Shown here one piece after another: positions 2,339 through 47,608 of a stretch of 64,000 bases of DNA; within the stretch, counting starts at the first letter, position 1, and the number at the start of each line of letters is the position of its first letter. The stretch is taken from IMG/VR virus record IMGVR_UViG_3300021957_000004, one strand, 5' to 3'. Source of the DNA: a virus. A model generated the notes under the pieces. It saw only the letters and a list, made by a program, of their open reading frames with translations. It ran no database searches and was not told the origin of the DNA. The translations under genes were made by a program, and so were the position numbers.

Positions 2339-3192
2339 TGATTATAGTAGATTATTCACAGATTGCTCTTAGCAATATAATAGTACAAAAGATAGATGAT
2401 AAAGACCTAATTAGGCATATGATTCTAAACTCTCTGCGTATGTACAACAAAAAATATAGAGATGAATACGGCCAAATGGTCTTAGCATGCGATGGTTTTA
2501 ATACCTGGAGAAAAGATTTCTTTCCAGAATATAAAGGTGCACGTAAAAAGAATAGAGCTAAATCTGACTTAGATTGGAATAACATCTTTACATCTTTAAA
2601 TGAAATAAGAGAAGAGATTAAACAAAACTTCCCATGGAAAGTATTACACCTAGATGGTACTGAAGCAGATGATATTATTGGTACACTAACTAATCAAACC
2701 CAAGAGTTTGGTCAGCATGAACCAGTTATGATTATATCATCGGACAAAGACTTTATACAATTACATAAGTTTAATAATGTAAAACAATTTAGCCCAATAC
2801 AAAAGAAGTTAGTTCAAGATCCTCACCCTATTACATATAAGTGGAATCATATCATGCGTGGCGACTCAGGCGATGGTATACCCAACGTCTTATCACCAGA
2901 TGATACGTTTATGACTGAATCACACCAGAATCAATTAAGACAAACTAGAGTCGATGAATGGATAAATAACTTAGATAACCTAAGAGAATTAATGGGGGAT
3001 GAAATATATCGTAACTTCCAAAGGAATCAAACGTTAATTGATTTTGACTTTATTCCAGAAGCTATCCAAAATAACATTATAAATACTTTTAACGAGACAA
3101 AACCAGCACCAAGAATGAAGGTATTGACTTACTTAATAAACAACAGATGCAATCAATTGATTGAATGCGTAGAGGAATTTTACAATGGCTAA
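2338..3192 (+). CDS. rnh: RNase H / 5'-3' exonuclease (T4 Rnh, FEN family)
   Basis: WRKDFFPEYKGARKK, EADDIIG, ISSDKDFIQL, GDSGDGIPN motifs. Confidence 0.95.
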   Translation: MIIVDYSQIALSNIIVQKIDDKDLIRHMILNSLRMYNKKYRDEYGQMVLACDGFNTWRKDFFPEYKGARKKNRAKSDLDWNNIFTSLNEIREEIKQNFPWKVLHLDGTEADDIIGTLTNQTQEFGQHEPVMIISSDKDFIQLHKFNNVKQFSPIQKKLVQDPHPITYKWNHIMRGDSGDGIPNVLSPDDTFMTESHQNQLRQTRVDEWINNLDNLRELMGDEIYRNFQRNQTLIDFDFIPEAIQNNIINTFNETKPAPRMKVLTYLINNRCNQLIECVEEFYNG

Positions 3193-22583: not shown

Positions 22584-23492
22584 ATGTCATTCGAAAACTT
22601 AAAGAGCGCACGAGGCTCATCAATCGATAAACTCGTAAAAGCTGCAGAAGCAGTATCCACCCCAAAAGCGGACAACTCATCTTATGGTGATGATCGTCTT
22701 TGGAAACCTACAAGAGATAAAGCAGGAAACGGTTACGCGGTAATCAGATTCTTACCTGCCAAAGAAGGTGAAGATCTTCCTTGGGTAAGATACTGGGATC
22801 ACGGATTTAAAGGTCCTAATGGTCTATGGTACATAGAGAAATCATTAACCTCTATTAATCAACCAGACCCTGTCTCAGAACAAAATACTGTTCTTTGGAA
22901 TACTGGTAGAGATGAGGATAAAGCTATTGCACGTGAAAGGAAAAGACGTTTACATTATGTTTCAAACATTCTAGTAATCAGTGATCCTGAACACCCAGAA
23001 AATAATGGAAAGGTATTCCTTTACCAATTCGGTAAAAGAATCTTCGACAAAGTTATGGAAGCTATGCAACCACAATTCGCCGATGAGCAACCTTGTAATC
23101 CATACGACTTCTGGGAAGGCGCTGACTTTAAAATTAAAATCAGAAAAGTAGATGGATGGGTTAACTATGATAAATCAGAGTTCTCAAGTCCTTCAGCATT
23201 ATTTGATAGTAATGAAGCAGAGCTAGAAAGTGTATATGGGAAACTACATTCATTAAGTGAATTCACTGATCCTAAATCATATAAATCATATGACGAACTT
23301 AAAGCCAAACTTAATAAAGTATTAGGTGTTGATGCTGGAATTACTGCCGATATGGCAACTATGACTAGCGCTCCTGTTCCAACAATGGAACAAACACCTT
23401 CAATGATAGAAGAATCTCCAGCAATGGAAACCTCTTCTAGCGATGAAGATGATACGTTAAGTTACTTTAATAAATTAGCTAACGAGAGTTAA
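22584..23492 (+). CDS. gp32: Single-stranded DNA-binding protein gp32
   Basis: DDRLWKP..DKAGNGYAVIRFLP, WYIEKS, NYDKSEF, acidic tail DDTLSYFNKLA. Confidence 0.96.
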   Translation: MSFENLKSARGSSIDKLVKAAEAVSTPKADNSSYGDDRLWKPTRDKAGNGYAVIRFLPAKEGEDLPWVRYWDHGFKGPNGLWYIEKSLTSINQPDPVSEQNTVLWNTGRDEDKAIARERKRRLHYVSNILVISDPEHPENNGKVFLYQFGKRIFDKVMEAMQPQFADEQPCNPYDFWEGADFKIKIRKVDGWVNYDKSEFSSPSALFDSNEAELESVYGKLHSLSEFTDPKSYKSYDELKAKLNKVLGVDAGITADMATMTSAPVPTMEQTPSMIEESPAMETSSSDEDDTLSYFNKLANES

Positions 23493-23512
23493 CTAATAGA
23501 TCTTACGATCGG

Positions 23513-23539
23513 AAGGGGTGCGAAAGCGCCCCTTTTTTT
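23513..23539 (+). terminator. Rho-independent terminator
   Basis: AAGGGGTGC-GAAA-GCGCCCCTT stem-loop followed by a T run, between convergent genes. Confidence 0.9.
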
Positions 23540-25346
23540 ATCTGCTGGTTACAGATCCAAGAACAGAAGTTGCTCTTGTAATTGGACTTTGTACTACTGT
23601 TGATCGAATAGAAGTAGCATTAGTAACATTACCACCTGTTGCGTTAGTAATTACTGCGCTTACAGATTGACCTGCAGATTTCTGTGCTTCATTGGATTGT
23701 GACTTTGCTAATATCTCACTGCCATCTACTGTAGTTTTCGGATCTACCTGGCTCGATATATCTGGCATTTCACCTGATAACATTTTTTCCATATCAGCAT
23801 CTGTTTGTCCTGTATCTGGACCTTTCTCTGCCGCAGCTGCTTCATTCTTAGCTCTTATCTCATCAGCTGCTCTTTTACCTCTTCCGGTATCAAGACCCTT
23901 AGAGATAGCATCTAATGCTGACGTGTCGAAATCATCTCCAAATAACCATTTGGCTGCTCTCTTACCTAAGAAGGATATCATTTTTCTTGGGATGTATGTA
24001 ATCCCATTTACGATCGATGCTAAGAAGTCAACAAAATATAACATTGCAACTTTTAACGTATCCATTATACTTGCGCCAGGTCCTAATGAATCTTGTAGCT
24101 TTTTAAACCCGAAGTATAAACCACCTATTAATGCCATGATAGCTAATATAGGTACTAGTATTGGAGCCATCGCAACCACTATTGGTGTTATCGCTGTCAT
24201 CATACTCATAAATGCAGCATATAGAGTTGGGATAAATGTTCCCATCATAAAGATTCTAAATACCCTAGCTGCTTTTAGTGCAGTACCAATAACCTTAATT
24301 AACTTACCACCAAACAATAATGCTAATGATCCAACTAATAGACCAAAGGTTCCCATGTTTTCTGAAAATAGTGATCCAGCTTCTTCAAAGTCACCACGTA
24401 AAAGAGCAGAGATCGTATTAAATACAATAGAAGCTTTCTCTATTATATCAACCATGATTGCTTGGAATTTTTCTGGATCTAAGAACATTAAAGCTAAACC
24501 AGTTAGTCCAGCTAGAAGTCCTGCTCCTTTAGCTCCTGCGGAAACCGTTTCATCGAACTTATCACCAAACTCTTCGAAACCTTTAGCCATTTGGAATAAT
24601 CTAGAGTTAGCTTCTTCGTTAAGCTTTCGTGCCTCTCTTCTGTTTTCTTCTGATTCTGCACCTTTTGCTATTTCAGCAAGTTGAGCATTAGCAAGTTCTA
24701 TCCCTCTATCATCACCATCTTCTATTGCTGATTTTAGATCTTCGTTTGCTTTATTATATGAATCTTGTAATTCTTTAACTTCACCCTTTAGGTTTCTTCC
24801 GAAAGCTCCGCCAAGTTTTTTTAATGATCTTTGTAGATCTTTATTTAAAGTATCATCATCTAAAACTTTTTTACTTTCTTCAAGCTTTGATATAATACCT
24901 TTTACGCCTTCAAGATTATTTTTACTCTCTTGATCGTTCCAAGTTGTTTGTAATTTTAAAAGATCACTAGATTGTGATTCAATAGCGGTTAGTTCTTTTA
25001 ATCTATTATCTAAGGTTTTGTCAGTTTTAGATCCGGCAAGAAGTTCAACAGAAGCATTCAAAGCCTTCTGCATTTTTTCTGCAGATTTATATTCTCCTGT
25101 TGCTCTTAACTCATCTATTTTTAGCTGAGCATCTTGCATTTTAACAAGAGCATCTGCTTTGACCTGTGCTCGTTTAGATGCTCCGTCCGTGGCATTGATT
25201 AACTTATTAAGATGTTTATTCGTAGATACAACTTCTTTCTTAGTATCTTTCTCTACTTTTTTATCTTCCTTCTTTGACTTTGCCGGCTCTTTTCTTTCTG
25301 CTATCGGCTTTTGCTTTGAAGTTGTAGGTTTTTTATCGTCTGCCAT
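23538..25346 (-). CDS. Putative tape measure / tail length determinant (gp29-like)
   Basis: 602 aa; long coiled-coil N-half and hydrophobic helical middle; lies downstream of gp26/gp51. Call rests on position, size and composition. Confidence 0.55.
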   Translation of the reverse strand: MADDKKPTTSKQKPIAERKEPAKSKKEDKKVEKDTKKEVVSTNKHLNKLINATDGASKRAQVKADALVKMQDAQLKIDELRATGEYKSAEKMQKALNASVELLAGSKTDKTLDNRLKELTAIESQSSDLLKLQTTWNDQESKNNLEGVKGIISKLEESKKVLDDDTLNKDLQRSLKKLGGAFGRNLKGEVKELQDSYNKANEDLKSAIEDGDDRGIELANAQLAEIAKGAESEENRREARKLNEEANSRLFQMAKGFEEFGDKFDETVSAGAKGAGLLAGLTGLALMFLDPEKFQAIMVDIIEKASIVFNTISALLRGDFEEAGSLFSENMGTFGLLVGSLALLFGGKLIKVIGTALKAARVFRIFMMGTFIPTLYAAFMSMMTAITPIVVAMAPILVPILAIMALIGGLYFGFKKLQDSLGPGASIMDTLKVAMLYFVDFLASIVNGITYIPRKMISFLGKRAAKWLFGDDFDTSALDAISKGLDTGRGKRAADEIRAKNEAAAAEKGPDTGQTDADMEKMLSGEMPDISSQVDPKTTVDGSEILAKSQSNEAQKSAGQSVSAVITNATGGNVTNATSIRSTVVQSPITRATSVLGSVTSR

Positions 25347-25355
25347 TAGTTAGTC

Positions 25356-25739
25356 CTAATCTGGGTTACTGTCACCGTGTTCTTTTGCTGCACTTGATGT
25401 ATATAAACCGAACCAAGCTGCGCCTGCACCTACTAAGATACTGATTAAGCCTGATTGCTCAAGTGATGGTTCTGGTAATTCCATAAACCAGAATGTAGCA
25501 TAATATAATAAGTACATGTAAATAGATAAGAATAGTCTCGGTATAACTCTCCATGCATCTAGTGTTTTAGCTGCAAAGACCCATTTTTGCCACGGGTTCT
25601 TCCTATCATTTGTTGTTAATTCAAAAATTTCTTGTTTTAATTCACCAATCTCGGTAACCATAGCCATAAACTTTTTAAGGTCTATTTCTACTTCATTACG
25701 ATCCATGTCACCTTGAAACTGTCCTGTTGGTTGATTCAT
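25356..25739 (-). CDS. Two-TM membrane protein
   Basis: LDAWRVIPRLFLSIYMYLLY...EQSGLISILVGAGAAWFGLY; GAGG RBS. Confidence 0.7.
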   Translation of the reverse strand: MNQPTGQFQGDMDRNEVEIDLKKFMAMVTEIGELKQEIFELTTNDRKNPWQKWVFAAKTLDAWRVIPRLFLSIYMYLLYYATFWFMELPEPSLEQSGLISILVGAGAAWFGLYTSSAAKEHGDSNPD

Positions 25740-25740
25740 T

Positions 25741-25938
25741 TTATTTCCTCATTTTAGCTTGCTGTTGTTGCAACCTTTCGTTCTCCTTTTGGATATGATC
25801 CTGCAGGAGAGCAATGTAAATTTCCCTCTCCCATGGCATCATATTTTCCAATTCGGTTAACGAATAACCGTGATGCTGCATCATTGCAAAGTTAGTCTTG
25901 TAATGGTTTACAAGGCTATCATGCGAGAGGCCTAAGTA
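25741..25938 (-). CDS. gp51: gp51-like baseplate hub assembly protein, probably the -1 frameshift extension of gp26
   Basis: Manual translation YLGLSHDSLVNHYKTNFAMMQHHGYSLTELENMMPWEREIYIALLQDHIQKENERLQQQQAKMRK; first ATG only at 25884. Confidence 0.8.
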   Translation of the reverse strand, partial: YLGLSHDSLVNHYKTNFAMMQHHGYSLTELENMMPWEREIYIALLQDHIQKENERLQQQQAKMRK

Positions 25939-26642
25939 AAAAAACTTTGAAGACCTTTTAGTTCTACTTTGTTTTCTTTACTACACTTAATACATTTATA
26001 CTCTATATCATGAGTTAATGTTGGAACTGTTTCAAAGAAAGCAGATATCAATTTGAATTGTGGTGCGGTTAAGTTATTCACAAATGCCTCAACAGATTCT
26101 CTTGGTTCGTCTTTCGTATCATATACTCCATCATCATCAAATATTGTATCAATACAATCAATAACTAAATCAAACGCACCTTCTGCTTTCGCTAGGTGGG
26201 ATTCATCATATTTTTCTATATCCATTATTCCAGGATATCTAAGCGTTACGCCTATATCCTTATCTATAATAACGGTGTTAGATTCTGGAAGATCTGTTAG
26301 ATTTATTTCTTCTAAATTAACTCGGACTGGTGTAACGGAATTACACGTTTCATCTAAGCATTTAAGTTCTAAATCTACGATCTCGCCAACAGACTTTGAA
26401 CGTAAGGCTAAAAACATTTTTTCGAAATCAAAAAGTGTAAAATGATTCATGTCTAGTTTCTCATATACACAATCTTCGATTATATCTTTTAAAGTTCTAA
26501 TAATCATTTTTTGATCTTTCGATTCTAAAGCAATCATTAAAAGTTTTTCTTCCTTTACATTATAAGGTCTGTATTCTATTTGTTCTCCTGTACTCGGCAA
26601 AATTGTCGTGTACCTAGAACTATTCACTACTGGCAAAGCCAT
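25932..26642 (-). CDS. gp26: Baseplate hub assembly protein gp26
   Basis: MALP...LPSTG..I.YRPYNVKEEKLL, LRSKSVGE, CxxC pairs, terminal GLQSFF. Confidence 0.88.
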   Translation of the reverse strand: MALPVVNSSRYTTILPSTGEQIEYRPYNVKEEKLLMIALESKDQKMIIRTLKDIIEDCVYEKLDMNHFTLFDFEKMFLALRSKSVGEIVDLELKCLDETCNSVTPVRVNLEEINLTDLPESNTVIIDKDIGVTLRYPGIMDIEKYDESHLAKAEGAFDLVIDCIDTIFDDDGVYDTKDEPRESVEAFVNNLTAPQFKLISAFFETVPTLTHDIEYKCIKCSKENKVELKGLQSFFT

Positions 26643-26653
26643 AATTTATTCTC

Positions 26654-27289
26654 CTAAGTAATAGTATTAATTGCGCTTCTTATTGCTGAACCTGTAGAAC
26701 TCAAAGGTCCTTCAGGCACGAATCTATCGTAAGCAAAAGTTACGCTCATTTCAGTTACTGCATCTGTTTGGGCATTATCTAAAGCAATGCCTTCATAACT
26801 TACAGGATAAGCCTTTAAAAGCTTAACTCCATAGACCGGAATGTTCTTCTGGTTCAGTTGCTGTATTATCACGTCAACAGAATAATCATTTTTAAATCCT
26901 GTGACATATGATTCGGTATTAAATATGCCTGACTGCCATTGTTCAAGCATATTTCTCATATAATAATCATTTGTTAAATGGAATGTCATAGTAACATCCT
27001 CATCAATAAATGTATATGGGTATTTGTTTTGTTGTTTGTCGTGATCGTGCTCAAATGTAGATAATGTTCTACCTGGCATATTAACTGATTTACATAAGAT
27101 AGATATATCTCTTGGATCGTTAAGTAAATTACCAGCGCTAAAATTTCCTGATAATAGCGAGCTTACGATTTGTTGTGGATTAATGTTTAATAAAGAAACT
27201 GCAGGAGGTGCAAAAATAACATTGAATCTATTAGCTGGGGCTAATCCACCTTTCTTTGCTATTGTTGATTTTAAATTTTCAATATTCAT
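26654..27289 (-). CDS. Tail-tube-fold protein (gp54 tube initiator / gp19-like)
   Basis: GGLAPANRF, LCKSVNMPG, LLKAYPVS, VTFAY. Confidence 0.75.
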   Translation of the reverse strand: MNIENLKSTIAKKGGLAPANRFNVIFAPPAVSLLNINPQQIVSSLLSGNFSAGNLLNDPRDISILCKSVNMPGRTLSTFEHDHDKQQNKYPYTFIDEDVTMTFHLTNDYYMRNMLEQWQSGIFNTESYVTGFKNDYSVDVIIQQLNQKNIPVYGVKLLKAYPVSYEGIALDNAQTDAVTEMSVTFAYDRFVPEGPLSSTGSAIRSAINTIT

Positions 27290-27883: not shown

Positions 27884-28336
27884 CTATTTATGCTTTCCTG
27901 TTAGTAGTTTGATCCCTAAATTCTTTAAAGTATCTTCTGTCCACACCTGGAACTTCCACCCTTTATGTTCAGCAAACTGTGATGCAGCATTCCATTTATC
28001 TGTATTTTTAATAAATGTGGTTACTTCTCTTAAATGTTTCTTGGTTTTTCTTCCGCCTTTTGGTGGAACCGTTTCTTTCTTCGGTTTAATTTCAACTAAA
28101 TATACATCACCATTGGTCATTTCTATTAATAAGTCAACAAAATAACGGTGTATTCTTCCGTCCACTTGCCATTTATATGGTACAACTACTTCTTCACTGT
28201 TCCAAAAACGTATGTTTGGATTAGCTTCGCACCATTTAAACGCTTGTCTTTCCCATAAAGATCTATATTGTACTTTACTTGCATCGCCTGCATACTTTGA
28301 TTTGTTTTTTATTGTGTATTTGCCTTTGTAACTCAT
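27884..28336 (-). CDS. gp4: Head completion nuclease gp4
   Basis: MSYKGKY...YRSLWE, WNSEE, HRYFVD, VEIKP, KWNAA; ATG at 28336. Confidence 0.92.
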   Translation of the reverse strand: MSYKGKYTIKNKSKYAGDASKVQYRSLWERQAFKWCEANPNIRFWNSEEVVVPYKWQVDGRIHRYFVDLLIEMTNGDVYLVEIKPKKETVPPKGGRKTKKHLREVTTFIKNTDKWNAASQFAEHKGWKFQVWTEDTLKNLGIKLLTGKHK

Positions 28337-28378
28337 ATAAATAAACCTATAATAATTAATTTTATACAGGTATTTATA
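28336..28378. promoter_or_regulatory. Pair of opposed T4 late promoters
   Basis: TATAAATA at 28336-28343 (+) and TATTTATA at 28371-28378 (minus-strand TATAAATA) between divergent gp4 and gp48. Confidence 0.8.
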
Positions 28379-29208
28379 TGGCTTCAATATTAACTTTCCC
28401 AAGAACTCTTCGCAGTGCAGCGGATGATAAAATGCCACATATTGGATTTTCTCTTACTGGTAAAAATAAACCAGATGCTACAGAAATAGATAGAGTACAT
28501 TTATTCATTCCATCTGGATTTTCAGTAAAAGACGGTGCGTCATTTCAAGGTTTAGAGCTTGGTACTATTAATGCTATGAAACAAGTTGCTGATACCGTAA
28601 AGAAAGGCGAAAGTGTTGATTCTTCAGATATATTTTCAGGTACAGATGCTACTGTAATGGGAATGAAAGCTATTGAAGGTCTTACAGGTGGAGCAGGTGG
28701 TGCATCAGCAAAAGCTGCTATGGATCAAGGCGTTGCTTTTAACCCACAAACAGCATTGGCATTTGATGGTGTTGAATTAAGAACATTTTCCTTTGCGTTT
28801 AAGTTAGTACCAGAATCAAAAGAAGAAGCAGAAGACGCAAGACGAATAGAAAACTTTTTTAGAAAATACTTATATCCAGAAGCTGCAGGAGCTTTTTCAC
28901 TTAAGTATCCTCCTAAATTTAAAATACAATTCTTTGTTGGTGAAGAAGAAAACACATATATGCCAATGATACACGATTGCTATTTATCTGGGGTTCAGGC
29001 AAACTTTAATCCAGACGGTAATTCATTCTATATAGATGGACAACCAACTGCCATTGAATTATCATTAGAATTCTCAGAAGCGAAACAACTTACAAGAAAT
29101 GATTTATATATTAAGAGCACAGGAGGTAGTGATCCTGAATATGATTACACAAGACCAGGATCATTCCCAAATGAATCTTCAGCTGGTAAATCCGGAGGTC
29201 AAGGATAA
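28378..29208 (+). CDS. gp48: Baseplate tail tube cap gp48
   Basis: NPQTALAFDGVELRTFSFAFKLVPESKEEA, YPPKF, DGQPTAIELSLEFSE. Confidence 0.85.
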   Translation: MASILTFPRTLRSAADDKMPHIGFSLTGKNKPDATEIDRVHLFIPSGFSVKDGASFQGLELGTINAMKQVADTVKKGESVDSSDIFSGTDATVMGMKAIEGLTGGAGGASAKAAMDQGVAFNPQTALAFDGVELRTFSFAFKLVPESKEEAEDARRIENFFRKYLYPEAAGAFSLKYPPKFKIQFFVGEEENTYMPMIHDCYLSGVQANFNPDGNSFYIDGQPTAIELSLEFSEAKQLTRNDLYIKSTGGSDPEYDYTRPGSFPNESSAGKSGGQG

Positions 29209-32597: not shown

Positions 32598-34445
32598 ATG
32601 GCAAGTAATTTAAAAGTCACCGAACTAGATTTTGATCAGATCAAAACTAATCTAAAAAACTTCCTAAAAACACAATCAGAGTTTACTGATTATGATTTTG
32701 ATGGATCAGGCATGAGTGTATTACTAGATGTTCTAGCATATAATACACATTACAATGCAATGAATGCTCACTTCTCTTTGAATGAAGCATTCTTAGATTC
32801 CGCACAAATAAGAGGAAACGTTGTAACAAGAGCAAAACTATTAGGTTATGTTCCTCGTTCTATTCTATCACCAAGAGCTACTGTTACTTTTGTAGTTAAT
32901 GTAAATGGAGTAGATGGAACTATCCCAACTACGCTTACGTTAAAAAGAGGAACTAAATTAAATACCTTAGTAGATGGTGAAGAGTTTCAGTACGTTGTAT
33001 TAGACAATCACACAGCAACTATATCGGATAACATATTTACGTTTTCTAATATTATTATTGCAGAAGGTTCTTTTAAAACTTTAAAATATAGGGTTGATAA
33101 CGATATAGAGAATCAGAAATTTCAACTCTCAGACTCAGATGCAGATACTTCTACGTTAAGAGTTAGAGTACAAGACAACGAAGAAAGCTCAGCCTTTGAT
33201 ATATACACAAAATTCGAATCATTAAAATCAGTTGATTCAACAACAAAGACTTATTACTTACAAGAAAATTCAAATGAATATTTTGAAATATATTTTGGTG
33301 ATGGAGTAACGGGTTATAAACCTATTAATAATAACATCGTAACTTTGGATTACATTTATACAAATGGAAAAGATTCTAACGGCGCTAATACATTTTTTAA
33401 AGTAGATAATATTGAGGGTTTTGAGAATATAACTATTACAACAATCGTAAAAGCAGCAGGTGGTGTTGATGCAGAAACAACAGAAAGTATTCGATTCAAT
33501 GCACCATTAACATTTACTTCCCAAAACAGAGCGGTTACATCGGACGATTATTCTGCTATTATTAAAAAATCATTTACTAATATCGATTCTATTTCTACTT
33601 GGGGTGGTGAAGACAATGATCCACCTGATTACGGTAAAGCTTATATAGCTATTAAACCTCTTACATCTACTATATTAACTACAGCAGAAAAGAATGAAAT
33701 CAAAGATACAATTTTAAAAGGAAAGAACGTAGTTAGTATTACGCCAGAGATTTTAGATCCTAACTTTACTTATTTAGAATTAGATGTATTTTTTAAATAT
33801 AATCCTAACCTTACAGATAGATCTAGTTCGGACTTACAATCCGTTGTAAGAGATACAATAAGCGATTACAACTTTAATAACTTAAATAAATTCGATGGTG
33901 TGTTTAGGCATTCCCAATTATTAAAGAACATTGATAACGCAGATCCATCAATTCAAAACAGTACTGTTAGACCTCGTATGTTTCAAAACATACCAGCAAC
34001 AACTAACATAACTACGAATAACTTTTCATTAACGTTTACTTCGCCTTTTTATCAATCAGGAGAATCAACCAAGCATATTATATCTTCTACTGCATTTACT
34101 ATTAATGGTGAAGATCATTACTTTGGTGATGAACCTATTACAGGATCAACAAGCAGAAAGGTTATAGTATATAAGGTTGTATCAGGTTCAAACGTAATTG
34201 TTATTTCAGACGCAGGAATAGTTAACGTAGACAGTGGAACAATTACATTAAATAGTTTTGCACCAGCTACTAATACAACTATTCGAATAACAGTTATACC
34301 AAACTCATTAGACTTAGCGCCAAAAAGAGATCAATTACTTTCTATTGAAAACACAAGAGTAACAATTACTCCTGAAGTTGATACGATATCAGTAAGTGGA
34401 TCCGCTGGTTCTATTCGATACACAACTACCCCAAGACTTAAATAA
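32598..34445 (+). CDS. gp6: Baseplate wedge subunit gp6
   Basis: LDFDQIKTNL, FTDYDFDGSG, LAYNTHY, QNRAVTSDDY, WGGEDNDPPDYGK. Confidence 0.95.
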   Translation: MASNLKVTELDFDQIKTNLKNFLKTQSEFTDYDFDGSGMSVLLDVLAYNTHYNAMNAHFSLNEAFLDSAQIRGNVVTRAKLLGYVPRSILSPRATVTFVVNVNGVDGTIPTTLTLKRGTKLNTLVDGEEFQYVVLDNHTATISDNIFTFSNIIIAEGSFKTLKYRVDNDIENQKFQLSDSDADTSTLRVRVQDNEESSAFDIYTKFESLKSVDSTTKTYYLQENSNEYFEIYFGDGVTGYKPINNNIVTLDYIYTNGKDSNGANTFFKVDNIEGFENITITTIVKAAGGVDAETTESIRFNAPLTFTSQNRAVTSDDYSAIIKKSFTNIDSISTWGGEDNDPPDYGKAYIAIKPLTSTILTTAEKNEIKDTILKGKNVVSITPEILDPNFTYLELDVFFKYNPNLTDRSSSDLQSVVRDTISDYNFNNLNKFDGVFRHSQLLKNIDNADPSIQNSTVRPRMFQNIPATTNITTNNFSLTFTSPFYQSGESTKHIISSTAFTINGEDHYFGDEPITGSTSRKVIVYKVVSGSNVIVISDAGIVNVDSGTITLNSFAPATNTTIRITVIPNSLDLAPKRDQLLSIENTRVTITPEVDTISVSGSAGSIRYTTTPRLK

Positions 34446-38451: not shown

Positions 38452-41400
38452 ATGGCAACAAGCAAAGTTAAAAACTATAACATCCCACCATACTACGATG
38501 ATTTTGATGAAACAAAAAATTATCATAGGATCTTATTTAGACCAGGATATGCAGTACAAGCAAGAGAATTAACACAATTACAAACTGCTTTGCAATCTCA
38601 GATAGATCGATATGGTCAGTATGCATTTAAAGATGGTTCAAGGGTATTGGATGGTAAGGTTACAGTTAATACTAAGTATGACTTTATTAAACTTAAATCT
38701 TCTTTTGATCACAGCGTTGGAGGATCATTAAATACAGATACTTACTTATCAGACTTTTTAGGATCAACTATTACTGGTTATGCTAATGGTACAAACAAAG
38801 TTACCGCAAAGGTAATAGGATTTGAAACTAAAACAGATGCTTCTAATCCAAACACTTTATATATTTCATATGAAAGTAAAGGTGGAAATGATAGAGACGT
38901 TGGTACGTTCGTAGGTGATGAAGAAATTATTTCGGATGCAAATACAGTTTCAGGTAATGTTCGATACGGTGAATTAGTTGCTAATAGTGGCACACCAACA
39001 GGATATGGTTCAGCTGTTAACGTAGAGCAAGGCGTATACTTTATTGCAGGTACATTTGTTTATGTAGAAGCACAATCTTTAATTTTAGATAAGTATACAA
39101 ATACCCCAAGTTATATTGTTGGTTTATCAGTCACAGAGAATTTAGTTTCTTCTGATACTTCTGGCCATTCAGCATTGGTTGATAATGCTGCAGGTACTCC
39201 TAACTTTGCAGCTCCAGGCGCAAATAGATATCAGATCTCCACATCTTTAGTAAAAGAACCTTTAGCAATTGCTTCTAGATCAACAGGAAATTATATTCCA
39301 TTGGTCACAGTGGAATTAGGAAAAGTCCAATTCGATAAAACAGATAAGAATAATGACACTGCCCTTACTCGTAGATTAGCAAGACGTACTTTTGAAGAGT
39401 CTGGAAATTACGCAGTACAACCTTTTGAATTAAACATTAGAGAATATTTAAATGATGGTTCAAATAAAGGATATAAAACAAATACACAAATCGTAGCAGA
39501 CGGAGATGCAGGAAGTAATTCAGCTGGTACAACATTTGGTTCTTCTAGATTAGCAGTTGGTGTAGAACCATCAGTAGCTTACGTGAAAGGATTCAGGAAT
39601 GAAAACCTTGCAACTAAATATGTTAAAGTAGAAAAGCCAAGAGGAGCAGATGCTACTAATGATGTTAATAATGCTACAACACAAATTAGATTAGGAAATT
39701 ATATTAGATTAACTAATTCAACTATTTCTGGTATACCAGATATTAATAATTTCACGCCAATTACTTTACTGAATCAATCTGGTTCTAATATTGGAACTTG
39801 TCGTGCAAGAGGTATGGAACAACCTATAATAGGTACAAGTGGATATACAGCATTATATATTTTTGATATTGCTATGACTGGCGGAGCTACATTTAATCAG
39901 GTAAGAGCAGTTTCACAAGCAGGTACACCAGCATTTTCAGCACATTTAATTAATAAGACTGGATCAGTTGGTCCATCTCCACAACCATCTGCAAATTCAG
40001 ATGCATTAATATATGATTCTGGTTTTAGTTCATTAGTATATAAATTACCATACGATGCAATAAAATCACTTAACACAGCAAGTGAAGATACTATCTTTAG
40101 ATCAAAAGAATTGTTTACAGGAACTTCAGATGGATCAGGTAGTATAACATTCTCAGTATCGGGAACAAATACATTTGTTGATAGTGATGATAACTTAATT
40201 TTTGCAACAGGTGGAAACTTTGGACAACTAGCTAATTCCGGTGGAACGTATAACTATACTACATCGAACACAACTACACTTACAATTGGTGGACTTCCAA
40301 CAAGTGCTGTTATTAAAGTATTAGCAACAGTGCAAAGAAACGAAGCAGCTATTCCCAAGACAAGAGTACCCAATGCAACAAAGGCAGCTACAGTAAGTTC
40401 TGGTTATATTGGATTAGCAAAAGCAGATATCATTCGAATAGTTTCTATCACAGATGGAAACAGCCTAGATGTTACAGAAAGATTTTCATTAGATAACGGC
40501 CAAAGAGATAATTATTACGGAGTAGGTAAAGCAGTTCTTAAACCTAACTTCCCAACTCCAACCGGGACATGTACAGTCACATTTGATTATTATTCACACG
40601 GTGCAGGTAAATATTTCTCAGTAGATTCTTATCCAGCATTAGATTATAGTACTATACCAACTTTTACGGGTATTAATGGGGAATTACAACTAAGAGATTG
40701 TATTGACTTTAGACCAAGAAAAGATGATAACGATGCAAACTTTACTTCTTCTGGTTCAGCATTAACTGTTGCACCACATCCATCTTCTACATTGACTGCA
40801 GATATAACATACTATATGTCACGTATCGATAAGCTATATGTAAACAGAGAAGGCGAATTCTTAATAGAAAAAGGTGTTCCATCAGATATTCCTAGTTCAC
40901 CAGAAGTACCAGATGATGCAATGGCATTATATGACTTACAACTTAAGCCATACGTATTTTCTTTATCAGATATAAAACCTAGAATTATTGATAACAAACG
41001 TTATACAATGAGAGATATAGGTGGATTAGATAAACGTATTAAAAATTTAGAATATTATACTTCATTATCTTTGCTAGAACAAAGTGCAGCTGATGCTCAT
41101 ATAGTAGATGCAGCTGGATTAAGCAGATTCAAAAATGGATTCTTAGTAGATTCATTCCGTGGACATCAAGTTGGTGATACTGCAAATAATGATTATCAGG
41201 TATCGATTGATAAGAATAATGGATTACTTAGACCTAAGTTTGATGAAAGAAGTGTTAACCTAATTAGAAAAAGCGGTGATTCAGGTTCAGTAGTAATTAG
41301 TTCTTCATTAGCTCATTTACCTATAGCATCGAATACAACTATTATCGAACAACCGTACGCGAGCTCGTACGTAAACGTAAACCCGTATAACGTATTTTCC

Positions 41401-43725
41401 TGGGATGGTGTAGTTAAACTTTCACCAGACTCAGATGAATGGAAAGAAGTTGATCAGCGTCCAGCTATTTTAATCGACGATACTTCTCAATATGATCAGT
41501 TTGTTAAAATGGCTGAGGAACAAGGTATATTAGGTACAGTTTGGAACGAATGGGAAACAAACTGGTCAGGCCAAGACATCCAAGAAACATTCCAAAGAGA
41601 ACAAATTATTGGTGGTGGACCAAACGGGGAAAATATTAAAGAGACAACAACTACTACTACAACCACAACTTCTAATCAGTCAAGAACAGGATTAAGAAGA
41701 GACGTTAGTTTTGATGTAGTTAAAAGAGAATCAGCTAGCAGAGTGGTAGAGGTTAACTTTATACCATTTATGAGATCAAGAGAGATATTCTTTTCAGCTC
41801 AAATGTTAAAACCAAATACTAAATTCTATGCATTCTTTGACGGATCAGATATTACAGCTTATTCTAAGCAAAAAGCCTTTGAAGAGTTTGCAGGTAGATC
41901 TAATATTGTAAACCATAGAGATGCTACATCTCACCCTGATTCAAGTTCAGGCACATTGGTATCAGACGGTAATGGTGATCTTGATGGTTCAATTATTATA
42001 CCAAACAACTCAGCATTACAATTTAAAACAGGTTCAAGAGAATTTAGATTAACAGATTCTCCTACCAATACAATTGCCACAGAAACTTCTTCAGCAGAAG
42101 CACAATATCAGGCAAGAGGATTATTAGAATCTAAACAATCAACTATTACTTCTACAAAGGTTCCACAGTTATCAACACAGGAATTAAACGACGGAAGATC
42201 AATTGTAGAAACAGAAGTTTCAGAAACAGTAGAATGGATTGATCCAATTGCAGAATCAATATTAATAACAGAACCAGGTGGGACATTTGCAACAAGCGTA
42301 GATATATTCTTCCAGAGTAGAAATGCTGAAAACATTCCAGTTAGATTAACAATCAGAGAAATGGAAAATGGTTCACCAACGCAAAGAATTGTACCAGGAG
42401 CAGATAAAGTATTAGCACCAGGTTCAGTTAATATATCAGCAACAGCAGCTTCAGCAACAAACTTTGTATTTGATCATCCAGTATTTTTAGAACAAGATCA
42501 CGAATATGCAATCGTACTTACTTCTCAGTGTGATGATTATAATGTTTGGATTGCAGAAATGGGTAAATTTGATGTTGCAAATCAATCATTCAGAATTACT
42601 AAACAACCATATAACGGTGTATTCTTTAGTTCAGCTAATGCTTCCACTTGGACTGCAGAGCAAGCTAAAGATCTTAAGTTTAAATTAAACTCAGCGGTAT
42701 TCCAGACATCAGGCGAAATAACATTAGTAAATGATATATTACCTGTTAGAACTTTACCATCTAACCCATTTACAACTGCATCCGGTGATGCTACAGTGAC
42801 TGTAAATCATCCTAACCATGGTTTACCTAATAATAGTTCTAAGGTAACGTTTGATAATACAGATAATGTTAACGGGCTTACAGGAGCTAGTCACATTGAT
42901 GGACAACGAACTGTTACAGTAGTAGATCACGATTCTTATACGTTTGAAGCTGGAACAACAGCAAATGCAACTGGTTCAGGTGGTGGTACATCTGTAACCG
43001 CTACAGAAAACAGACACATTGATGTTATGAATAACTACATACAGAATTTAACTTTACCGAATACACAACTAAGGTTACATGCTACAACATATAGCGGTAA
43101 ATCTATAAGTGGAACAGAAACGCCTTATCAAGCACAACCAGAGTTTGAAATATTACCGAATTCAAATGTTATATTTGCAGTTCCAAGGTTAATAGCTAAT
43201 GCTGATAATGAATCACAACAAGGTAATAATAAAGGTTATGCATTAAGATGTTCAATGAGCACAACTAAGACTAACTTAACTCCTCTTATTGATTTAAATA
43301 GAGCTTCAGTAGTTACAGTACAAAATAGAATCAACTCAGGATCAGCAACAGAAACTGCAGCATCAGGCGGAAATAACCTTGCAAGATATATTACTAAAAC
43401 AGTAGAACTGGCAGATGATGCAGATGTAATTACAGCTTTCCTAGCAGTAAATAGGCCTTCTGCTTCAAGCGTAGAATTATATTATAGAGTACTAACATCT
43501 GGTTCAGCTGCTTCAATGGTTGATACAACATGGGTATTAGCTACACCAACTGCTTCTATTTCTATTAACGATAACCCAGCGATATTTGAAGAAGTACAAT
43601 ATGATTTAGATCCATTAGGAGCTAACGTAAGTTTTGGTTCAATGCAATTTAAGATTGTAATGAGATCAACAAATACTTCAACTGTTCCATCAATAAGAGA
43701 CTTTAGAGCCATTGCGGCAACGTAG
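38452..43725 (+). CDS. Large virion structural protein (DUF4815 / VrlC-like)
   Basis: PYYDDFD..KNYHRILFRPGYAVQARELTQLQ, LARRTFEESGNY, RYTMRDIG.L.KRI.NLEYYTSLSLLE, terminal DFRAIA. Confidence 0.85.
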   Translation: MATSKVKNYNIPPYYDDFDETKNYHRILFRPGYAVQARELTQLQTALQSQIDRYGQYAFKDGSRVLDGKVTVNTKYDFIKLKSSFDHSVGGSLNTDTYLSDFLGSTITGYANGTNKVTAKVIGFETKTDASNPNTLYISYESKGGNDRDVGTFVGDEEIISDANTVSGNVRYGELVANSGTPTGYGSAVNVEQGVYFIAGTFVYVEAQSLILDKYTNTPSYIVGLSVTENLVSSDTSGHSALVDNAAGTPNFAAPGANRYQISTSLVKEPLAIASRSTGNYIPLVTVELGKVQFDKTDKNNDTALTRRLARRTFEESGNYAVQPFELNIREYLNDGSNKGYKTNTQIVADGDAGSNSAGTTFGSSRLAVGVEPSVAYVKGFRNENLATKYVKVEKPRGADATNDVNNATTQIRLGNYIRLTNSTISGIPDINNFTPITLLNQSGSNIGTCRARGMEQPIIGTSGYTALYIFDIAMTGGATFNQVRAVSQAGTPAFSAHLINKTGSVGPSPQPSANSDALIYDSGFSSLVYKLPYDAIKSLNTASEDTIFRSKELFTGTSDGSGSITFSVSGTNTFVDSDDNLIFATGGNFGQLANSGGTYNYTTSNTTTLTIGGLPTSAVIKVLATVQRNEAAIPKTRVPNATKAATVSSGYIGLAKADIIRIVSITDGNSLDVTERFSLDNGQRDNYYGVGKAVLKPNFPTPTGTCTVTFDYYSHGAGKYFSVDSYPALDYSTIPTFTGINGELQLRDCIDFRPRKDDNDANFTSSGSALTVAPHPSSTLTADITYYMSRIDKLYVNREGEFLIEKGVPSDIPSSPEVPDDAMALYDLQLKPYVFSLSDIKPRIIDNKRYTMRDIGGLDKRIKNLEYYTSLSLLEQSAADAHIVDAAGLSRFKNGFLVDSFRGHQVGDTANNDYQVSIDKNNGLLRPKFDERSVNLIRKSGDSGSVVISSSLAHLPIASNTTIIEQPYASSYVNVNPYNVFSWDGVVKLSPDSDEWKEVDQRPAILIDDTSQYDQFVKMAEEQGILGTVWNEWETNWSGQDIQETFQREQIIGGGPNGENIKETTTTTTTTTSNQSRTGLRRDVSFDVVKRESASRVVEVNFIPFMRSREIFFSAQMLKPNTKFYAFFDGSDITAYSKQKAFEEFAGRSNIVNHRDATSHPDSSSGTLVSDGNGDLDGSIIIPNNSALQFKTGSREFRLTDSPTNTIATETSSAEAQYQARGLLESKQSTITSTKVPQLSTQELNDGRSIVETEVSETVEWIDPIAESILITEPGGTFATSVDIFFQSRNAENIPVRLTIREMENGSPTQRIVPGADKVLAPGSVNISATAASATNFVFDHPVFLEQDHEYAIVLTSQCDDYNVWIAEMGKFDVANQSFRITKQPYNGVFFSSANASTWTAEQAKDLKFKLNSAVFQTSGEITLVNDILPVRTLPSNPFTTASGDATVTVNHPNHGLPNNSSKVTFDNTDNVNGLTGASHIDGQRTVTVVDHDSYTFEAGTTANATGSGGGTSVTATENRHIDVMNNYIQNLTLPNTQLRLHATTYSGKSISGTETPYQAQPEFEILPNSNVIFAVPRLIANADNESQQGNNKGYALRCSMSTTKTNLTPLIDLNRASVVTVQNRINSGSATETAASGGNNLARYITKTVELADDADVITAFLAVNRPSASSVELYYRVLTSGSAASMVDTTWVLATPTASISINDNPAIFEEVQYDLDPLGANVSFGSMQFKIVMRSTNTSTVPSIRDFRAIAAT

Positions 43726-43733
43726 GATACATT

Positions 43734-43952
43734 ATGCCAAGAAAGAAAAAAGAAAACCAAGTAGAAATAATTGATCAACCTGATCTAGTTAAAGATACTA
43801 CTTCACAAGCAGTTATAAATAATAACACATCTGCTTTATTAAACCGAAGAGCACAAATGAATGCTTTAAGAGTTAAAGATCAAGAGTTAGATGATATTAA
43901 AAAAGACATCAAAGAATTACAAGCTTTGGTTAAAAAATTAGGTAAAGGATAA
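43734..43952 (+). CDS. Hypothetical protein
   Basis: 72 aa; LVKDTTSQAVIN followed by a coiled coil. Confidence 0.7.
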   Translation: MPRKKKENQVEIIDQPDLVKDTTSQAVINNNTSALLNRRAQMNALRVKDQELDDIKKDIKELQALVKKLGKG

Positions 43953-46900
43953 TGGCCGAAAATAAAGAAACCAGAATATTAAAATCAAGTTCCATTGAAG
44001 AACTCAGACAAAAGTCTAATGAGATTTCCTTTGGATTAGGGGATAAAACTTTATTAGATTCAGATATATCTGATAAGGTATTTAGTCATACGGCAGCAGC
44101 TGGTGATTATTTAGTTTCTCCTGCAACTACAAGGTTTGAATATAAACCTGAAGAGACAATTGATAATACTGCAGGATATATCCTTTTAACTGGAAGTCCT
44201 ACGGTTGGTGCAGGTTTTTCAGCAGGTTCAGCGGTCACACAAAGTGGAGGATATTCCGCTACTATAGTAAGTGCTTCTACTAATAAAATTCTTGTAAAGA
44301 ACTCCAGTGGAACATTTAGTTCTAGTTCTACATTAACAGCTGGTTCAAGTACAATTGCAGGTTCTGCTATTCGAAGCTTAGTTGCTGAATCATACAAAAA
44401 AGCAGAAGTAATTGTAAAAGTAGGATCAACAGTTTATACCCAAGACTCTACCTCTACTACTGGATTTCATATACCAAATCATGCAGGATCAGTCACACTT
44501 ACTGGAAGTCCTGATGTATCGGATTTTGAAGAAGGCGCAGTTGCATATCAAGGATCAAACCTTGCAAATGCTACTTGGCAAGGAACAATTTTAGATTGTT
44601 CTTCTACATTATTAAGAACAAAAACAGTTTCTGGTTCATTTAGCGCATCAACACAAATAAAAGTTGATGGTGGTACAGATACAATTGCAGGATCAAACCA
44701 TGGCGATATAACAAACGAAGATGTAACATTTGGAAAACTTATTGAATTTAATACTCCGTTAAGTGTAAATGATGCAGTTGTAATTACATCAACAAATTTA
44801 GTAGATGCTATTAACGAAGTACAAGATGATATTGGTACAATCAGTTCATTAGCTTCTGGTATATCAAATAGAACAGACTTAGTAAATGCTACCAACTCTC
44901 TTAAAACAGAAATCGGTACAGCTTCTCTAGACACATCAGCAAATTCATTAAGAGGTGCAGTTAATGAACTACACACAGAAATAGTTTCTAATGATACAGA
45001 TATTGCTACAATCAATACTAAGCTTGGAACAATTACAGCAGGAGCATTTGGAACGACAGCATCGACAGTAAGTACTGCAATCGCAGAATTACATACTGAC
45101 GTAGATGCTAGATTGATGTTAACGAAAGGAACATCACAAACAATTAATGGTAATATATCATTTAGTAACGGTAAAACATTTACATTCCCATCGGGATCTA
45201 CACTAGATATAAGACAAGGTTCTATATTAACTGGATCTGGTGGTGGTGAATTAACATTTGATACCGCATTCTTAACCCTGATAGCTAATGATACAACAGC
45301 AGCTGTTAACCAATTTGGTCTGGAAGGACGAAGAGTTGGTTCAGGTAAAGATGTAAGAATACAATTTAATGAAACCCAAGTCACTGGAAACAAAGAAGCA
45401 AGAGCATGGCAGTTACAAGGATTAGATGATTCTAATGCTTCAAACACTGCCGATATAGTTACATTCTATAATGCTAAAGAATTAGTTTCCAGTAATACAG
45501 AAACAGGTATTGATGTAACATGGGATTCAACAAATCAAAACTTTGATTTTGCTTTATCAGCAGATCCAACTATTACATTGGCTGGCGATTTAGGTGGAAC
45601 AGCAACATTAACTAATTTAACAAGTGCTACATTAACAGCAACTATTCAGGCTGGTTCAGTTGAGAATAGTATGTTAGCTGGTGGTATTACTAATGCTAAT
45701 TTAGCTGGTAGTATTGCAAATGCTAAATTAGCTAATCCAAGTATTACAGTAAGTGATGGATCAAATACAAGTCCAGTTGCTTTAGGTGGAACATTAACAT
45801 TCGCAGGAACATCAGGCGAAGTAACGGTAGCAGAAAATGCTGGAACAGTTACAGTTGGATTACCTGATAACGTAACAGTTGGTGGTAACTTAACAATTAC
45901 TGGTAACTTAGATGTTAACGGAACACAAACAACTATTAATACATCAACATTAGAAATAGATGATACATTAGTATTAATGGGAGCTTCAAATTCAGAACCA
46001 ACAACAGGTGGTTTCGGTTTAGAAACAAGAAGCTTCACGGGCGTAGGCACGCACTCGAATAATGCAGCAAACGTAACTGGTTCACACTCTATTGTATATA
46101 ACTTTGCAACAGATAGATGGGAAGCAGATGGTTCATTAATATTATCAAGTGCTACCCAAGGTGCACCTAAAATTGAAGGACAGTTATTTGAATCCAATGA
46201 TAATTTACAATTCTCAGCTGGCTCAGGTTTAACCGAATCAGTTTCAGTATCAGGTCTTAACACAACCGTTACATATACAAACTCAGATAAAGGTTCTGAT
46301 GTAATGACCTTTAAAAATGTAGCTTCAAGTTCAGGTACTGCGGTTGCAGATAATAATACTGACACACTTACTATACTAGGTGGTAATGATTTATCAACAT
46401 CAGTAAGTGGAGACACATTAACGATTCAACATGATAACTCGGGCGCAAATGCAGGAAGTTATGGAGCACAACATACTGTTCCAAGCATTACAGTAGATGC
46501 AAGAGGTCACGTAACAAGTATTTCTAATAATAGTGCAATCACACTTTCTTCATTAGGTTATACAGGTCAAACAAACGCAAATAATTATTCATTTAATATT
46601 GACGGTGATAGTGGAACATCTAACGTTATATCCTCTGGAGAAACATTTGAGATAGAAGGTGGAACTCACTGTTCAACCGTAGTTGAATCTAACAAAATTA
46701 TTATTAATTCTGTAAATACCGAATATGACACATCCACTGGGTTAACAGATAATAACTTTACAAATGCATTAAAAACTAAACTAGATAATATAGCAGGCAG
46801 TGCGAATAACTATTCATTTTTAATTGGGTGTAATGGAACAAGTGGAACTTCTACAATAAACAATGGTAATACTTTAACTGTTAATGGTGCAGGAGCAACC

Positions 46901-47608
46901 AGTGTTACTAGATCGGGTGATGCATTCACTATTACTTCTACAAATAATACATATACAAGTTCAAGTTTTACTATTACCGATCTATCTGGATTCCCTGGAG
47001 GATCTACGGGATTCTTAAGAGCAGACGGATCATTCCAAACACCAAATTATCCAAGCGTACCAGGTGTTGGTGATAATGGATTAACACAAAAGAACTTTAC
47101 AACCACTTTATTTAATAAACTAAACGGTATAACTGGAGGAGCAACAGCAAATACAGGTACAGTTACAAATGTAACCGGATCAAATGGTATAAGTGTATCA
47201 AGTGGAACAACAACTCCTGGTATAAGCTTAGCTGGAACTTATTCTGGAACATGGGCAGTTTCGGGAGCGATTACAGCTACAGGTGATATTACATCATCCG
47301 TTTCTGATTCTCAATTAAAAGACAGAAAAGCTAATATTGATAATGCATTAGAAAAAGTAGAACAAATAAATGGATTCTATTTTAATTACAATGATACAGC
47401 AGTAGAACTACTAGATGCAGATAAAGAAGAGATGCAAGTTGGTGTATCAGCTCAGGAAATAGCTAAAGTAATGCCAGAGGTAGTTAAACCAGCACCAATA
47501 AATCCAGAGAAATATAAAACAGTACAATATGAAAGATTAGTACCGTTATTGATAGAAGCAATAAAAGAGTTAAATGCTGAAATCAAAGAACTAAAAAAGC
47601 ATAAATAA
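43952..47608 (+). CDS. Tail fibre protein with C-terminal intramolecular chaperone (S74-type)
   Basis: T/S/G-rich shaft; NLVDAINE coiled-coil repeats; SDSQLK...ALEKVEQINGFYF...GVSAQE...YERLVPLLIEAIKEL. Confidence 0.82.
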   Translation: MAENKETRILKSSSIEELRQKSNEISFGLGDKTLLDSDISDKVFSHTAAAGDYLVSPATTRFEYKPEETIDNTAGYILLTGSPTVGAGFSAGSAVTQSGGYSATIVSASTNKILVKNSSGTFSSSSTLTAGSSTIAGSAIRSLVAESYKKAEVIVKVGSTVYTQDSTSTTGFHIPNHAGSVTLTGSPDVSDFEEGAVAYQGSNLANATWQGTILDCSSTLLRTKTVSGSFSASTQIKVDGGTDTIAGSNHGDITNEDVTFGKLIEFNTPLSVNDAVVITSTNLVDAINEVQDDIGTISSLASGISNRTDLVNATNSLKTEIGTASLDTSANSLRGAVNELHTEIVSNDTDIATINTKLGTITAGAFGTTASTVSTAIAELHTDVDARLMLTKGTSQTINGNISFSNGKTFTFPSGSTLDIRQGSILTGSGGGELTFDTAFLTLIANDTTAAVNQFGLEGRRVGSGKDVRIQFNETQVTGNKEARAWQLQGLDDSNASNTADIVTFYNAKELVSSNTETGIDVTWDSTNQNFDFALSADPTITLAGDLGGTATLTNLTSATLTATIQAGSVENSMLAGGITNANLAGSIANAKLANPSITVSDGSNTSPVALGGTLTFAGTSGEVTVAENAGTVTVGLPDNVTVGGNLTITGNLDVNGTQTTINTSTLEIDDTLVLMGASNSEPTTGGFGLETRSFTGVGTHSNNAANVTGSHSIVYNFATDRWEADGSLILSSATQGAPKIEGQLFESNDNLQFSAGSGLTESVSVSGLNTTVTYTNSDKGSDVMTFKNVASSSGTAVADNNTDTLTILGGNDLSTSVSGDTLTIQHDNSGANAGSYGAQHTVPSITVDARGHVTSISNNSAITLSSLGYTGQTNANNYSFNIDGDSGTSNVISSGETFEIEGGTHCSTVVESNKIIINSVNTEYDTSTGLTDNNFTNALKTKLDNIAGSANNYSFLIGCNGTSGTSTINNGNTLTVNGAGATSVTRSGDAFTITSTNNTYTSSSFTITDLSGFPGGSTGFLRADGSFQTPNYPSVPGVGDNGLTQKNFTTTLFNKLNGITGGATANTGTVTNVTGSNGISVSSGTTTPGISLAGTYSGTWAVSGAITATGDITSSVSDSQLKDRKANIDNALEKVEQINGFYFNYNDTAVELLDADKEEMQVGVSAQEIAKVMPEVVKPAPINPEKYKTVQYERLVPLLIEAIKELNAEIKELKKHK

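Follow-up and report, generated by a model that had tools for sequence, protein, structure and literature searches.

A conserved slippery heptamer in the gp26-like gene of a T4-like virus points to a programmed −1 frameshift into the "gp51" reading frame

The gp26-Like Gene and Its −1-Frame Extension

The window analyzed here is the whole stretch of 64,000 nucleotides (nt) of the IMG/VR virus record IMGVR_UViG_3300021957_000004, an uncultured marine T4-like phage, and our subject is a gp26-like gene on its minus strand together with the small open reading frame (ORF) that overlaps the 3' end of this gene in the −1 frame (Table 1). The gp26-like body matches the family PF12322 (T4_baseplate) with 194.6 bits against a curated cut-off of 24.5 (E 2.4e-57, Pfam scan) and covers positions 5–233 of the 282 positions of the profile phrog_150 ("baseplate hub"). 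On the minus strand the gene ends with ...GGT CTT CAA AGT TTT TTT ACT TAG, which contains a heptamer of the slippery type X_XXY_YYZ in the phase of the gp26 frame. Read from base 25938, the −1 frame begins with YLGLSHDSLVNHYKTNFAMMQHH...PWEREIY... and closes with the stop codon TAA at 25741–25743; in the upstream direction it is closed by a TAA at 25978–25980. The extension encoded in this frame matches phrog_634 ("baseplate hub assembly catalyst") with its residues 3–64 (E 1.7e-28) and also covers positions 236–279 of phrog_150, the same profile that is matched by the gp26-like body. Decoding in the zero frame would yield 236 amino acids (aa) and a −1 slip 235 + 65 = 300 aa, with the predicted trans-frame junction ...GLQSFFYLGLSHDSLVNHYK in this phage. 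An earlier note on this DNA had proposed such a fusion of gp26 to gp51, quoting the gp26 end CAA AGT TTT TTT ACT TAG with a run of seven A's at 25938–25944 on the plus strand, a −1 frame of 65 aa open to 25741, and products of 236 and about 300 aa; these readings were confirmed in the sequence.

Table 1. Positions of the features discussed in the text (numbering of the window).
Feature	Position	Strand	Remarks
gp26-like gene, zero frame	25932..26642	−	236-aa short form; C-terminus SFFT, then TAG
Slippery heptamer T_TTT_TTT (X_XXY_YYZ), gp26-frame phase	25938..25944	−	One codon before the stop
−1-frame extension	25741..25938	−	65 codons + TAA; 3' part labeled "gp51 baseplate hub assembly catalyst" in databases
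Predicted 300-aa frameshift product	25741..26642	−	Codons 1–235 in gp26 frame, base 25938 read twice, then 65 codons
First ATG of small ORF	25882..25884	−	Codon 19 of 65; annotators' start in relatives
Weak Shine-Dalgarno-like AAAGGT, possible dnaX-type stimulator	25953..25958	−	8 nt upstream of the heptamer
Hairpin CUUGUAA-ACCA-UUACAAG, function doubtful	25897..25914	−	7 bp; starts 23 nt past the heptamer
Tail tube gene (gp19-like)	26654..27289	−	phrog_45 "tail tube" E 1e-36; PF06841 E 1e-7; adjoins gp26 upstream
127-aa ORF, downstream	25356..25739	−	phrog_10198 (unknown function), E 5.6e-20
602-aa ORF, tape measure candidate solely from location and length	23538..25346	−	T4 gp29 has 590 aa
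gp32-like ssDNA-binding gene	22584–23492	+	Convergent with the 602-aa gene
gp6-like baseplate wedge gene	32598–34445		

Conservation of the Slippery Heptamer

The junction was read in nine isolates of different lineages, in 80 IMG/VR contigs with gp26 identities of 34–54%, and in 14 closer relatives; the 104 sequences include 94 metagenomic contigs. Each of the 104 homologs possesses T_TTT_TTY in the phase of gp26 and an open −1 frame leading into the conserved domain. The heptamer-bearing lineages include Kyanoviridae cyanophages, the Methylophilales phage Melnitz, Vibrio Schizotequatrovirus, Sinorhizobium Emdodecavirus, and Pseudomonas phage pf16. Preservation of the slippery run and of the −1 phase in homologs, which the earlier note had named as a check of its proposal, was thus found without exception. 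When the region was compared with phage genomes by blastn, conservation at the DNA level was detected only from the T run onward.

A detailed survey covered 90 homologs, 88 of which have distinct sequence contexts. The gp26 stop codon follows the heptamer directly or after one further codon in 85 of the 90. The codon that precedes the run is AGT in 50 cases, GAT in 13, AAT in 12, TCT in 8, GCT in 5, and GGT in 2, and its wobble T is therefore kept in 90/90 across six codons and five amino acids. For the first Phe, every homolog uses TTT, as compared to 73% of the Phe codons elsewhere in the same genes, while the second, which provides the Z position of the heptamer, varies freely (TTT 51, TTC 39). 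Calculated from codon usage under the assumption of independent sequences, log10 P is about −23.6 for the invariant wobble T and about −12.3 for the first TTT, values that overstate the independence of the homologs because these are phylogenetically related. This pattern indicates that the constraint at the junction acts on the nucleotides, not only on Phe-Phe.

Two individual records deserve mention. The KVP40-type gp26 of Vibrio phage PG216 (353–1198) is 281 aa long owing to an insertion of about 45 residues in the middle of the body, and it carries the heptamer T_TTT_TTC and the −1 extension like the other homologs; the GenBank note of this phage already points to a resemblance to the final 40 residues of T4 gp51. 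A junction identical to that of the window was found in the independent contig L117 (IMGVR_UViG_3300009086_000911). The corresponding 4.6-kb IMG/VR entry (L117, L104) encodes a gp26 protein that is 100% identical and a start of the 602-aa gene that is 98% identical, and judged by these identities this public-metagenome sequence stems from the same phage or from one that hardly differs from it.

Coding in the −1 Frame and the Small-ORF ATG

Analyzed column by column, conservation acquires a three-base period in the −1 frame from the second codon past the heptamer onward. Searched with tblastn, the 65 residues match 564 phage records, among them cyanophages and phages of Vibrio, Sinorhizobium, Rhizobium, Pseudomonas, Pelagibacter, and Methylophilales; nearly all alignments begin at residue 2 and run, in a different frame, across the 3' end annotated for gp26. 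The gp51-like sequence had been stated in the earlier note to begin 18 codons before its first ATG, with conservation of these residues as the check, and the periodicity bears this out: the segment ahead of the ATG is conserved as −1-frame coding sequence.

In the window, the −1 frame contains no ATG, GTG, or TTG after its upstream stop until the ATG at 25884 is reached. The ATG itself has no Shine-Dalgarno (SD) sequence, as the earlier note had remarked; the predicted duplex with the anti-SD is only −0.7 kcal/mol. Among the homologs, pairing at the small-ORF ATG averages +0.07 kcal/mol and reaches −4 in 4%, as opposed to a mean of −5.6 kcal/mol and 76% at the starts of gp26. In 76 of the 90 homologs, codon 19 or codon 20 of the −1 ORF is an ATG, but 13 complete homologs lack it; in several of them codon 33 is the first ATG, and one homolog has no ATG within 40 codons. 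Furthermore, the small ORF is not separated from gp26 by a late promoter motif of the T4 type; the closest such motif on this strand is at 28371–28378. The small-ORF ATG, neither universal nor preceded by an SD sequence, hence behaves as a conserved internal Met codon, which speaks against the independent initiation at 25884 that the earlier note had listed as the competing outcome.

T4 gp26 and gp51: Two Genes for a Short and a Long Form

T4 gp51 (249 aa) contains PF12322 in its residues 1–201 (E 3.9e-52), covers phrog_150 positions 13–280, and matches phrog_634 with its C-terminus. T4 gp26 (208 aa), by contrast, matches PF12322 and positions 14–235 of phrog_150 only, and the two T4 proteins recognize each other by BLASTP with an E value of 2e-6. 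Judged from these matches, T4 gp51 is a paralog of gp26 with a C-terminal extension that corresponds to the small ORF. In a joint alignment, the end of T4 gp26 (GLKEFFELL) stands opposite the end of the window gp26 (GLQSFFT), and T4 gp51 runs on past this point into the segment aligned with the window −1 ORF, where both share the motif ...Y.(T/I)N(F/H).L(M/V)...YSL..(I/L)..M(I/M)P.ER.... Thus, window gp26 corresponds to T4 gp26, and window gp26 plus extension is collinear with T4 gp51. Since the T4 proteins represent the short and the long paralog, the window gene would reproduce both forms by means of the frameshift.

The number of PF12322 genes per complete genome fits this correspondence: Melnitz, P-SSM2, phiM19, and Vibrio phage PG216 have one each and T4 has two, and the 64-kb window contains a single PF12322 body and a single extension. 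The long form as a single ORF occurs in at least 1380 T-even-type records. In T4 and T-even types it is a separate, divergently transcribed paralog, whereas the window has one gene and a predicted frameshift. None of 11 complete T4-type gp26 genes that occur next to a single-ORF gp51 has the slippery heptamer. Their equivalent codons are GAG TTC TTT, GAA TTC ATT, GAG TTT ATT, or AAA TTA TTT, so that even Phe-Phe is not always kept, and the strict heptamer therefore accompanies the one-gene arrangement.

What is known about function comes from the T4 proteins. Both gp26 and gp51 are listed as hub assembly chaperones of T4 (Leiman et al., 2010, PMC3004832, Table 2). T4 gp51 is essential and needed for baseplate assembly, with unknown function, and is absent from the final particle, a combination of need and absence that is known for gp51 only and has been proposed for gp26 as well; the hub-assembly literature calls the function of the two proteins contradictory and unknown (PMC3004832). 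T4 also has an annotated 26' that arises from an internal in-frame start within gene 26 (T4 entry 2303–2590, minus strand), and T4 may consequently make three related forms, gp26, gp26', and gp51. In Acinetobacter phage Octan (MT409116.1, 119583–120332), the gp51 homolog is named "tape measure protein assembly chaperone", the only annotation we encountered that treats gp51 as a protein of the tail-assembly-chaperone type.

Candidate Stimulatory Elements

Across the family, a G-rich SD-like sequence that derives from (E/K/R)-G codons is located 8–10 nt before the heptamer. Anti-SD pairing of −4 kcal/mol or stronger is predicted for 84% of these sites, versus 11% of positions taken as controls from these genes. 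The bias is visible in the choice of codons: Glu at this site is encoded by GAG and GAA in a ratio of 34:10, versus 25% GAG elsewhere, and GGG makes up 19% of the Gly codons, versus 5% elsewhere. In the dnaX gene of Escherichia coli, the tau and gamma products result from a −1 frameshift on a homopolymeric heptamer, and some 10 nt ahead of it the gene has an internal SD-like sequence. The gp26 family would share with dnaX both the homopolymeric heptamer and the upstream element, here GAGG or AAGG at 8–10 nt with enrichment at the codon level. There are, however, two differences: dnaX possesses a strong downstream hairpin, whereas none is conserved in the gp26 family, and the shifted frame of dnaX stops at once to give the short product, whereas that of gp26 would give the long one. 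The zero-frame stop codon at or next to the slip site may also contribute to slipping.

The window itself contains a 7-bp hairpin downstream of the heptamer (Table 1). Over 41 sequences, 63% of its cells are paired, and the covariation is weak. The close relatives of the window retain the hairpin, a single G-C pair being replaced by A-U, and it has disappeared from the contigs L125–L130. A hairpin that starts 23 nt downstream is too distant for a canonical stimulator. Because of this distance, the weak covariation, and its restriction to the closest relatives, the hairpin was dropped as a candidate stimulator.

Fold and Resemblance to Tail Assembly Chaperones

An AlphaFold2 model of the window gp26 has a mean predicted local distance difference test score (pLDDT) of 91.3 and a predicted template modeling score (pTM) of 0.81, and it resembles two similar beta-beta-alpha-alpha-beta-beta halves. 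Two Cys pairs, KCLDETC and KCIKC (residues ~95–102 and 217–220), are located on beta-hairpins and have the look of a zinc ribbon. Two such pairs are also found in close relatives and in T4 gp26 and gp51, and according to the alignment they have been lost from the cyanophage and Melnitz homologs.

The gp26 model was searched with VIA-align, a structure search independent of Foldseek that itself warns that Z scores of 7–8 are common. The top matches, all aligned to residues 1–95, were 3fgx, an uncharacterized protein of B. stearothermophilus (Z 8.1, 85 residues aligned), 3klu, the protein YqbN of the B. subtilis skin prophage (Z 7.1, 85 residues), 2ob9, the HK97 tail assembly chaperone (Z 6.9, 84 residues), and 5ir0, ORF19 of a V. 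cholerae element resembling phage-inducible chromosomal islands (PICI-like; Z 5.2, 81 residues); the next unrelated row has Z 4.3. YqbN is a member of the XkdN-like tail assembly chaperone family. In Foldseek, the HK97 chaperone 2ob9 obtained the highest probability for the gp26 model (0.75), but with an E value of 0.33, and no match at E <= 0.001 was found with the models of gp26 and of a T4-type gp51. Likewise, phmmer found no match among PDB sequences, and of the Pfam families of tail assembly chaperones none was matched by gp26 or the extension, which hit PF12322 or nothing. The likeness of the modeled N-terminal domain of gp26 to tail assembly chaperones is suggestive only.

Phages with long tails make the tail assembly chaperones G and GT by a −1 frameshift upstream of the tape measure gene, and Xu, Hendrix, and Duda reportedly described this in 2004 (Mol Cell 16:11) as a conserved feature of the tail assembly chaperone genes of these phages. 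The arrangement in the window shares several properties with lambda gpG/gpGT: a common N-terminal body, a −1 slip, predicted for the window, on X_XXY_YYZ a few codons before the zero-frame stop, a gene located directly after the tail tube gene, no obligatory downstream structure, and a role as assembly chaperones, which for the PF12322 family is known from the T4 proteins. It differs in that the gp26 body has double the length and comprises two domains and the Cys pairs, that a 127-aa ORF intervenes between gp26 with its extension and the candidate tape measure gene, and that the T4 counterparts are assigned to the baseplate hub and not to the tube. The suggestion in the earlier note that this lineage follows the G/GT strategy is supported: the paralogy of T4 gp51 including its extension, the single PF12322 gene, and the suggestive fold strengthen it, and its tape-measure context is the weaker part.

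Probable Programmed Frameshifting and Alternative Explanations

On these grounds we consider it highly probable that the gp26-like gene is a conserved programmed −1 ribosomal frameshift cassette that gives a short and a long form of a hub or tail chaperone. Two products would very probably be made from one gene because some ribosomes slip back on the conserved T run. Most ribosomes would read AGT TTT TTT ACT TAG and terminate there, yielding the short form of 236 aa, and a minority would slip back by one base with two tRNA-Phe on U_UUU_UUU and read 65 more codons in the −1 frame to complete the long form of 300 aa. The helical extension at the C-terminus of this long form would be the "gp51" of the databases in cyanophage-type genomes, and the pair would correspond to the short gp26 and the long gp51 that T-even phages encode by two paralogous genes. 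By analogy to lambda G/GT, body and extension would interact with different partners, in the tail hub or the tape measure, while assembly proceeds, and the ratio of the two forms would be set by the frequency of slipping. Seen in this way, the gp26/extension cassette would, judged by its sequence, accomplish with one gene what T4 achieves with genes 26 and 51, and it would join the systems of the G/GT kind as a new member.

Several points weigh against this interpretation. The 300-aa product remains a prediction, and the relatedness of the homologs affects the P values given above. The SD-like AAAGGT of the window is weak, with a predicted anti-SD duplex of only −3.8 kcal/mol. Within the 60 nt after the heptamer no conserved structure was detected: the mean z score of the minimum free energy of single sequences is −0.69, with 15% below −2, and the RNAalifold consensus has 0 pairs over 41 sequences. 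The chaperone matches of the gp26 model lie in the range of Z that VIA-align calls common, and they are absent when the T4-type gp51 model (pLDDT 88.2) is used; generic helix-loop-helix matches with Z <= 5.8 fill this list, because the extension of that model consists of three helices (207–248). Finally, the gene two positions downstream that the earlier note had regarded as tape-measure-like, the 602-aa ORF, has no demonstrable homology to T4 gp29.

The strongest competitor, although improbable in our view, is transcriptional slippage, in which RNA polymerase adds one U in the T run and the same 300-aa fusion is made while the ribosome does not slip. The homopolymer of seven T's, or of eight in the 22 of 90 homologs in which the stop codon follows directly, would be compatible with such a mechanism, and since the protein product is identical, comparisons of the fusion among homologs do not discriminate between the two kinds of slip. 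Yet the run consists of only six T's followed by C in 39 of the 90 homologs, and six T's are fewer than in runs known to give efficient polymerase slippage. Selection for polymerase slippage would, moreover, favor TTT at the second Phe codon, which varies freely; the X_XXY_YYZ phase is exact in every case, and the upstream SD-like element with its enrichment at the codon level fits a ribosomal mechanism only.

Even less probable is that no recoding takes place at all, the ATG at 25884 starting a free 47-aa "gp51" and the T run merely encoding a conserved Phe-Phe. GenBank annotators indeed call a free small ORF in many relatives, and its ATG recurs at the same position or the next codon in most homologs, but it lacks the SD pairing seen at gp26 starts and is missing altogether from the 13 complete homologs mentioned above. 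This explanation would also leave the 18 codons before the ATG, conserved as −1 coding and unreachable from any start codon, unaccounted for. Nor does Phe-Phe explain the invariant wobble T and the invariant first TTT; T4-type gp26 genes keep F-F, F-I, or L-F without a slippery run, and the homologous segment of T4 forms the C-terminus of a gp26-like body. A sequencing or assembly error in the homopolymer, or a decaying gene, whose true form would be one continuous 300-aa ORF, is effectively refuted and has next to no probability: homopolymer runs are error-prone and T4 gp51 is a continuous ORF of the same architecture, but the same frame arrangement recurs in 104/104 independent isolates and metagenome assemblies from many platforms, with an identical junction in contig L117 and without a single in-frame fused version.

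We lean, with some reservation, toward a −1 frameshift that is ancestral for the G/GT-type pair across the T4-like superfamily, here including cyanophages, pelagiphage-type and methylophilales phages, KVP40-like vibriophages, phiM12-like rhizobiophages, and pf16, with recoding later swapped for gene duplication in the T-even lineage. If so, several hundred entries for free "gp51 baseplate hub assembly catalyst" proteins of 50–60 aa would be mis-annotated frameshift extensions, T4 would be no exception to the tail-chaperone frameshift rule, and gp51, essential and long puzzling, would be the "GT" form, docking on the hub or the tape measure.

As far as we are aware, T4-like phages have been treated as lacking the tail-chaperone frameshift. 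Full-text literature searches yielded no report of a gp26/gp51 frameshift, and none of 10 annotated records that we inspected has a joined coding sequence across gp26 and gp51. If the frameshift is real, the annotation of a core gene would have to be corrected in more than 560 T4-like phage genomes, in which a fragment without a start is now called "gp51", and the conserved tail-chaperone frameshift would extend to the T4-like phages. T4 gp26 and gp51 would gain a concrete, testable role, being one chaperone in a short and a long version like G and GT of lambda, and recoding and paralogs would represent two evolutionary solutions to one stoichiometry problem, with the loss of the slippery site in the paralog lineage as a natural control.

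Gene Neighborhood

On the minus strand of the window, a head-closure gp4-like gene is followed by a gp2-like gene, the gp19-like tail tube gene, gp26 with its extension, the 127-aa ORF, and the 602-aa ORF, an order that parallels V-G-T-H of lambda. For the 602-aa ORF, the protein atlas gave a lead to PF25671 (T4_Tape_measure) at rank 16. A comparison with T4 gp29 resulted in a BLASTP E value of 0.036 and, using shallow profiles, an hhalign probability of 1.9%, and the ORF had no PHROG or Pfam match; it was therefore kept as no more than a candidate tape measure gene, because of its place and a length similar to that of T4 gp29.

Two T4-type late-promoter motifs (TATAAATA) are situated back to back at 28336–28343 (plus strand) and 28371–28378 (minus strand), between the gp4-like gene on the minus strand and a gp48-like baseplate tube cap gene (28378–29208) on the plus strand. 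Judged from this arrangement they resemble a pair of divergent late promoters, with the minus-strand motif heading the operon gp4-gp2-gp19-gp26. The mechanically assigned GTG start of the gp4-like ORF at 28438 lies upstream of this motif, and the PHROG match begins at residue 35 only; the true start is thus probably further downstream. Between the convergent gp32-like and 602-aa genes, an 11-bp GC-rich hairpin followed by T's (23511–23536) probably functions as a bidirectional terminator. Past the baseplate wedge genes, the plus strand contains three very long ORFs at 38452–43725 (1757 aa), 43952–47608 (1218 aa), and 49811–53425 (1204 aa), which presumably encode fiber or structural proteins.

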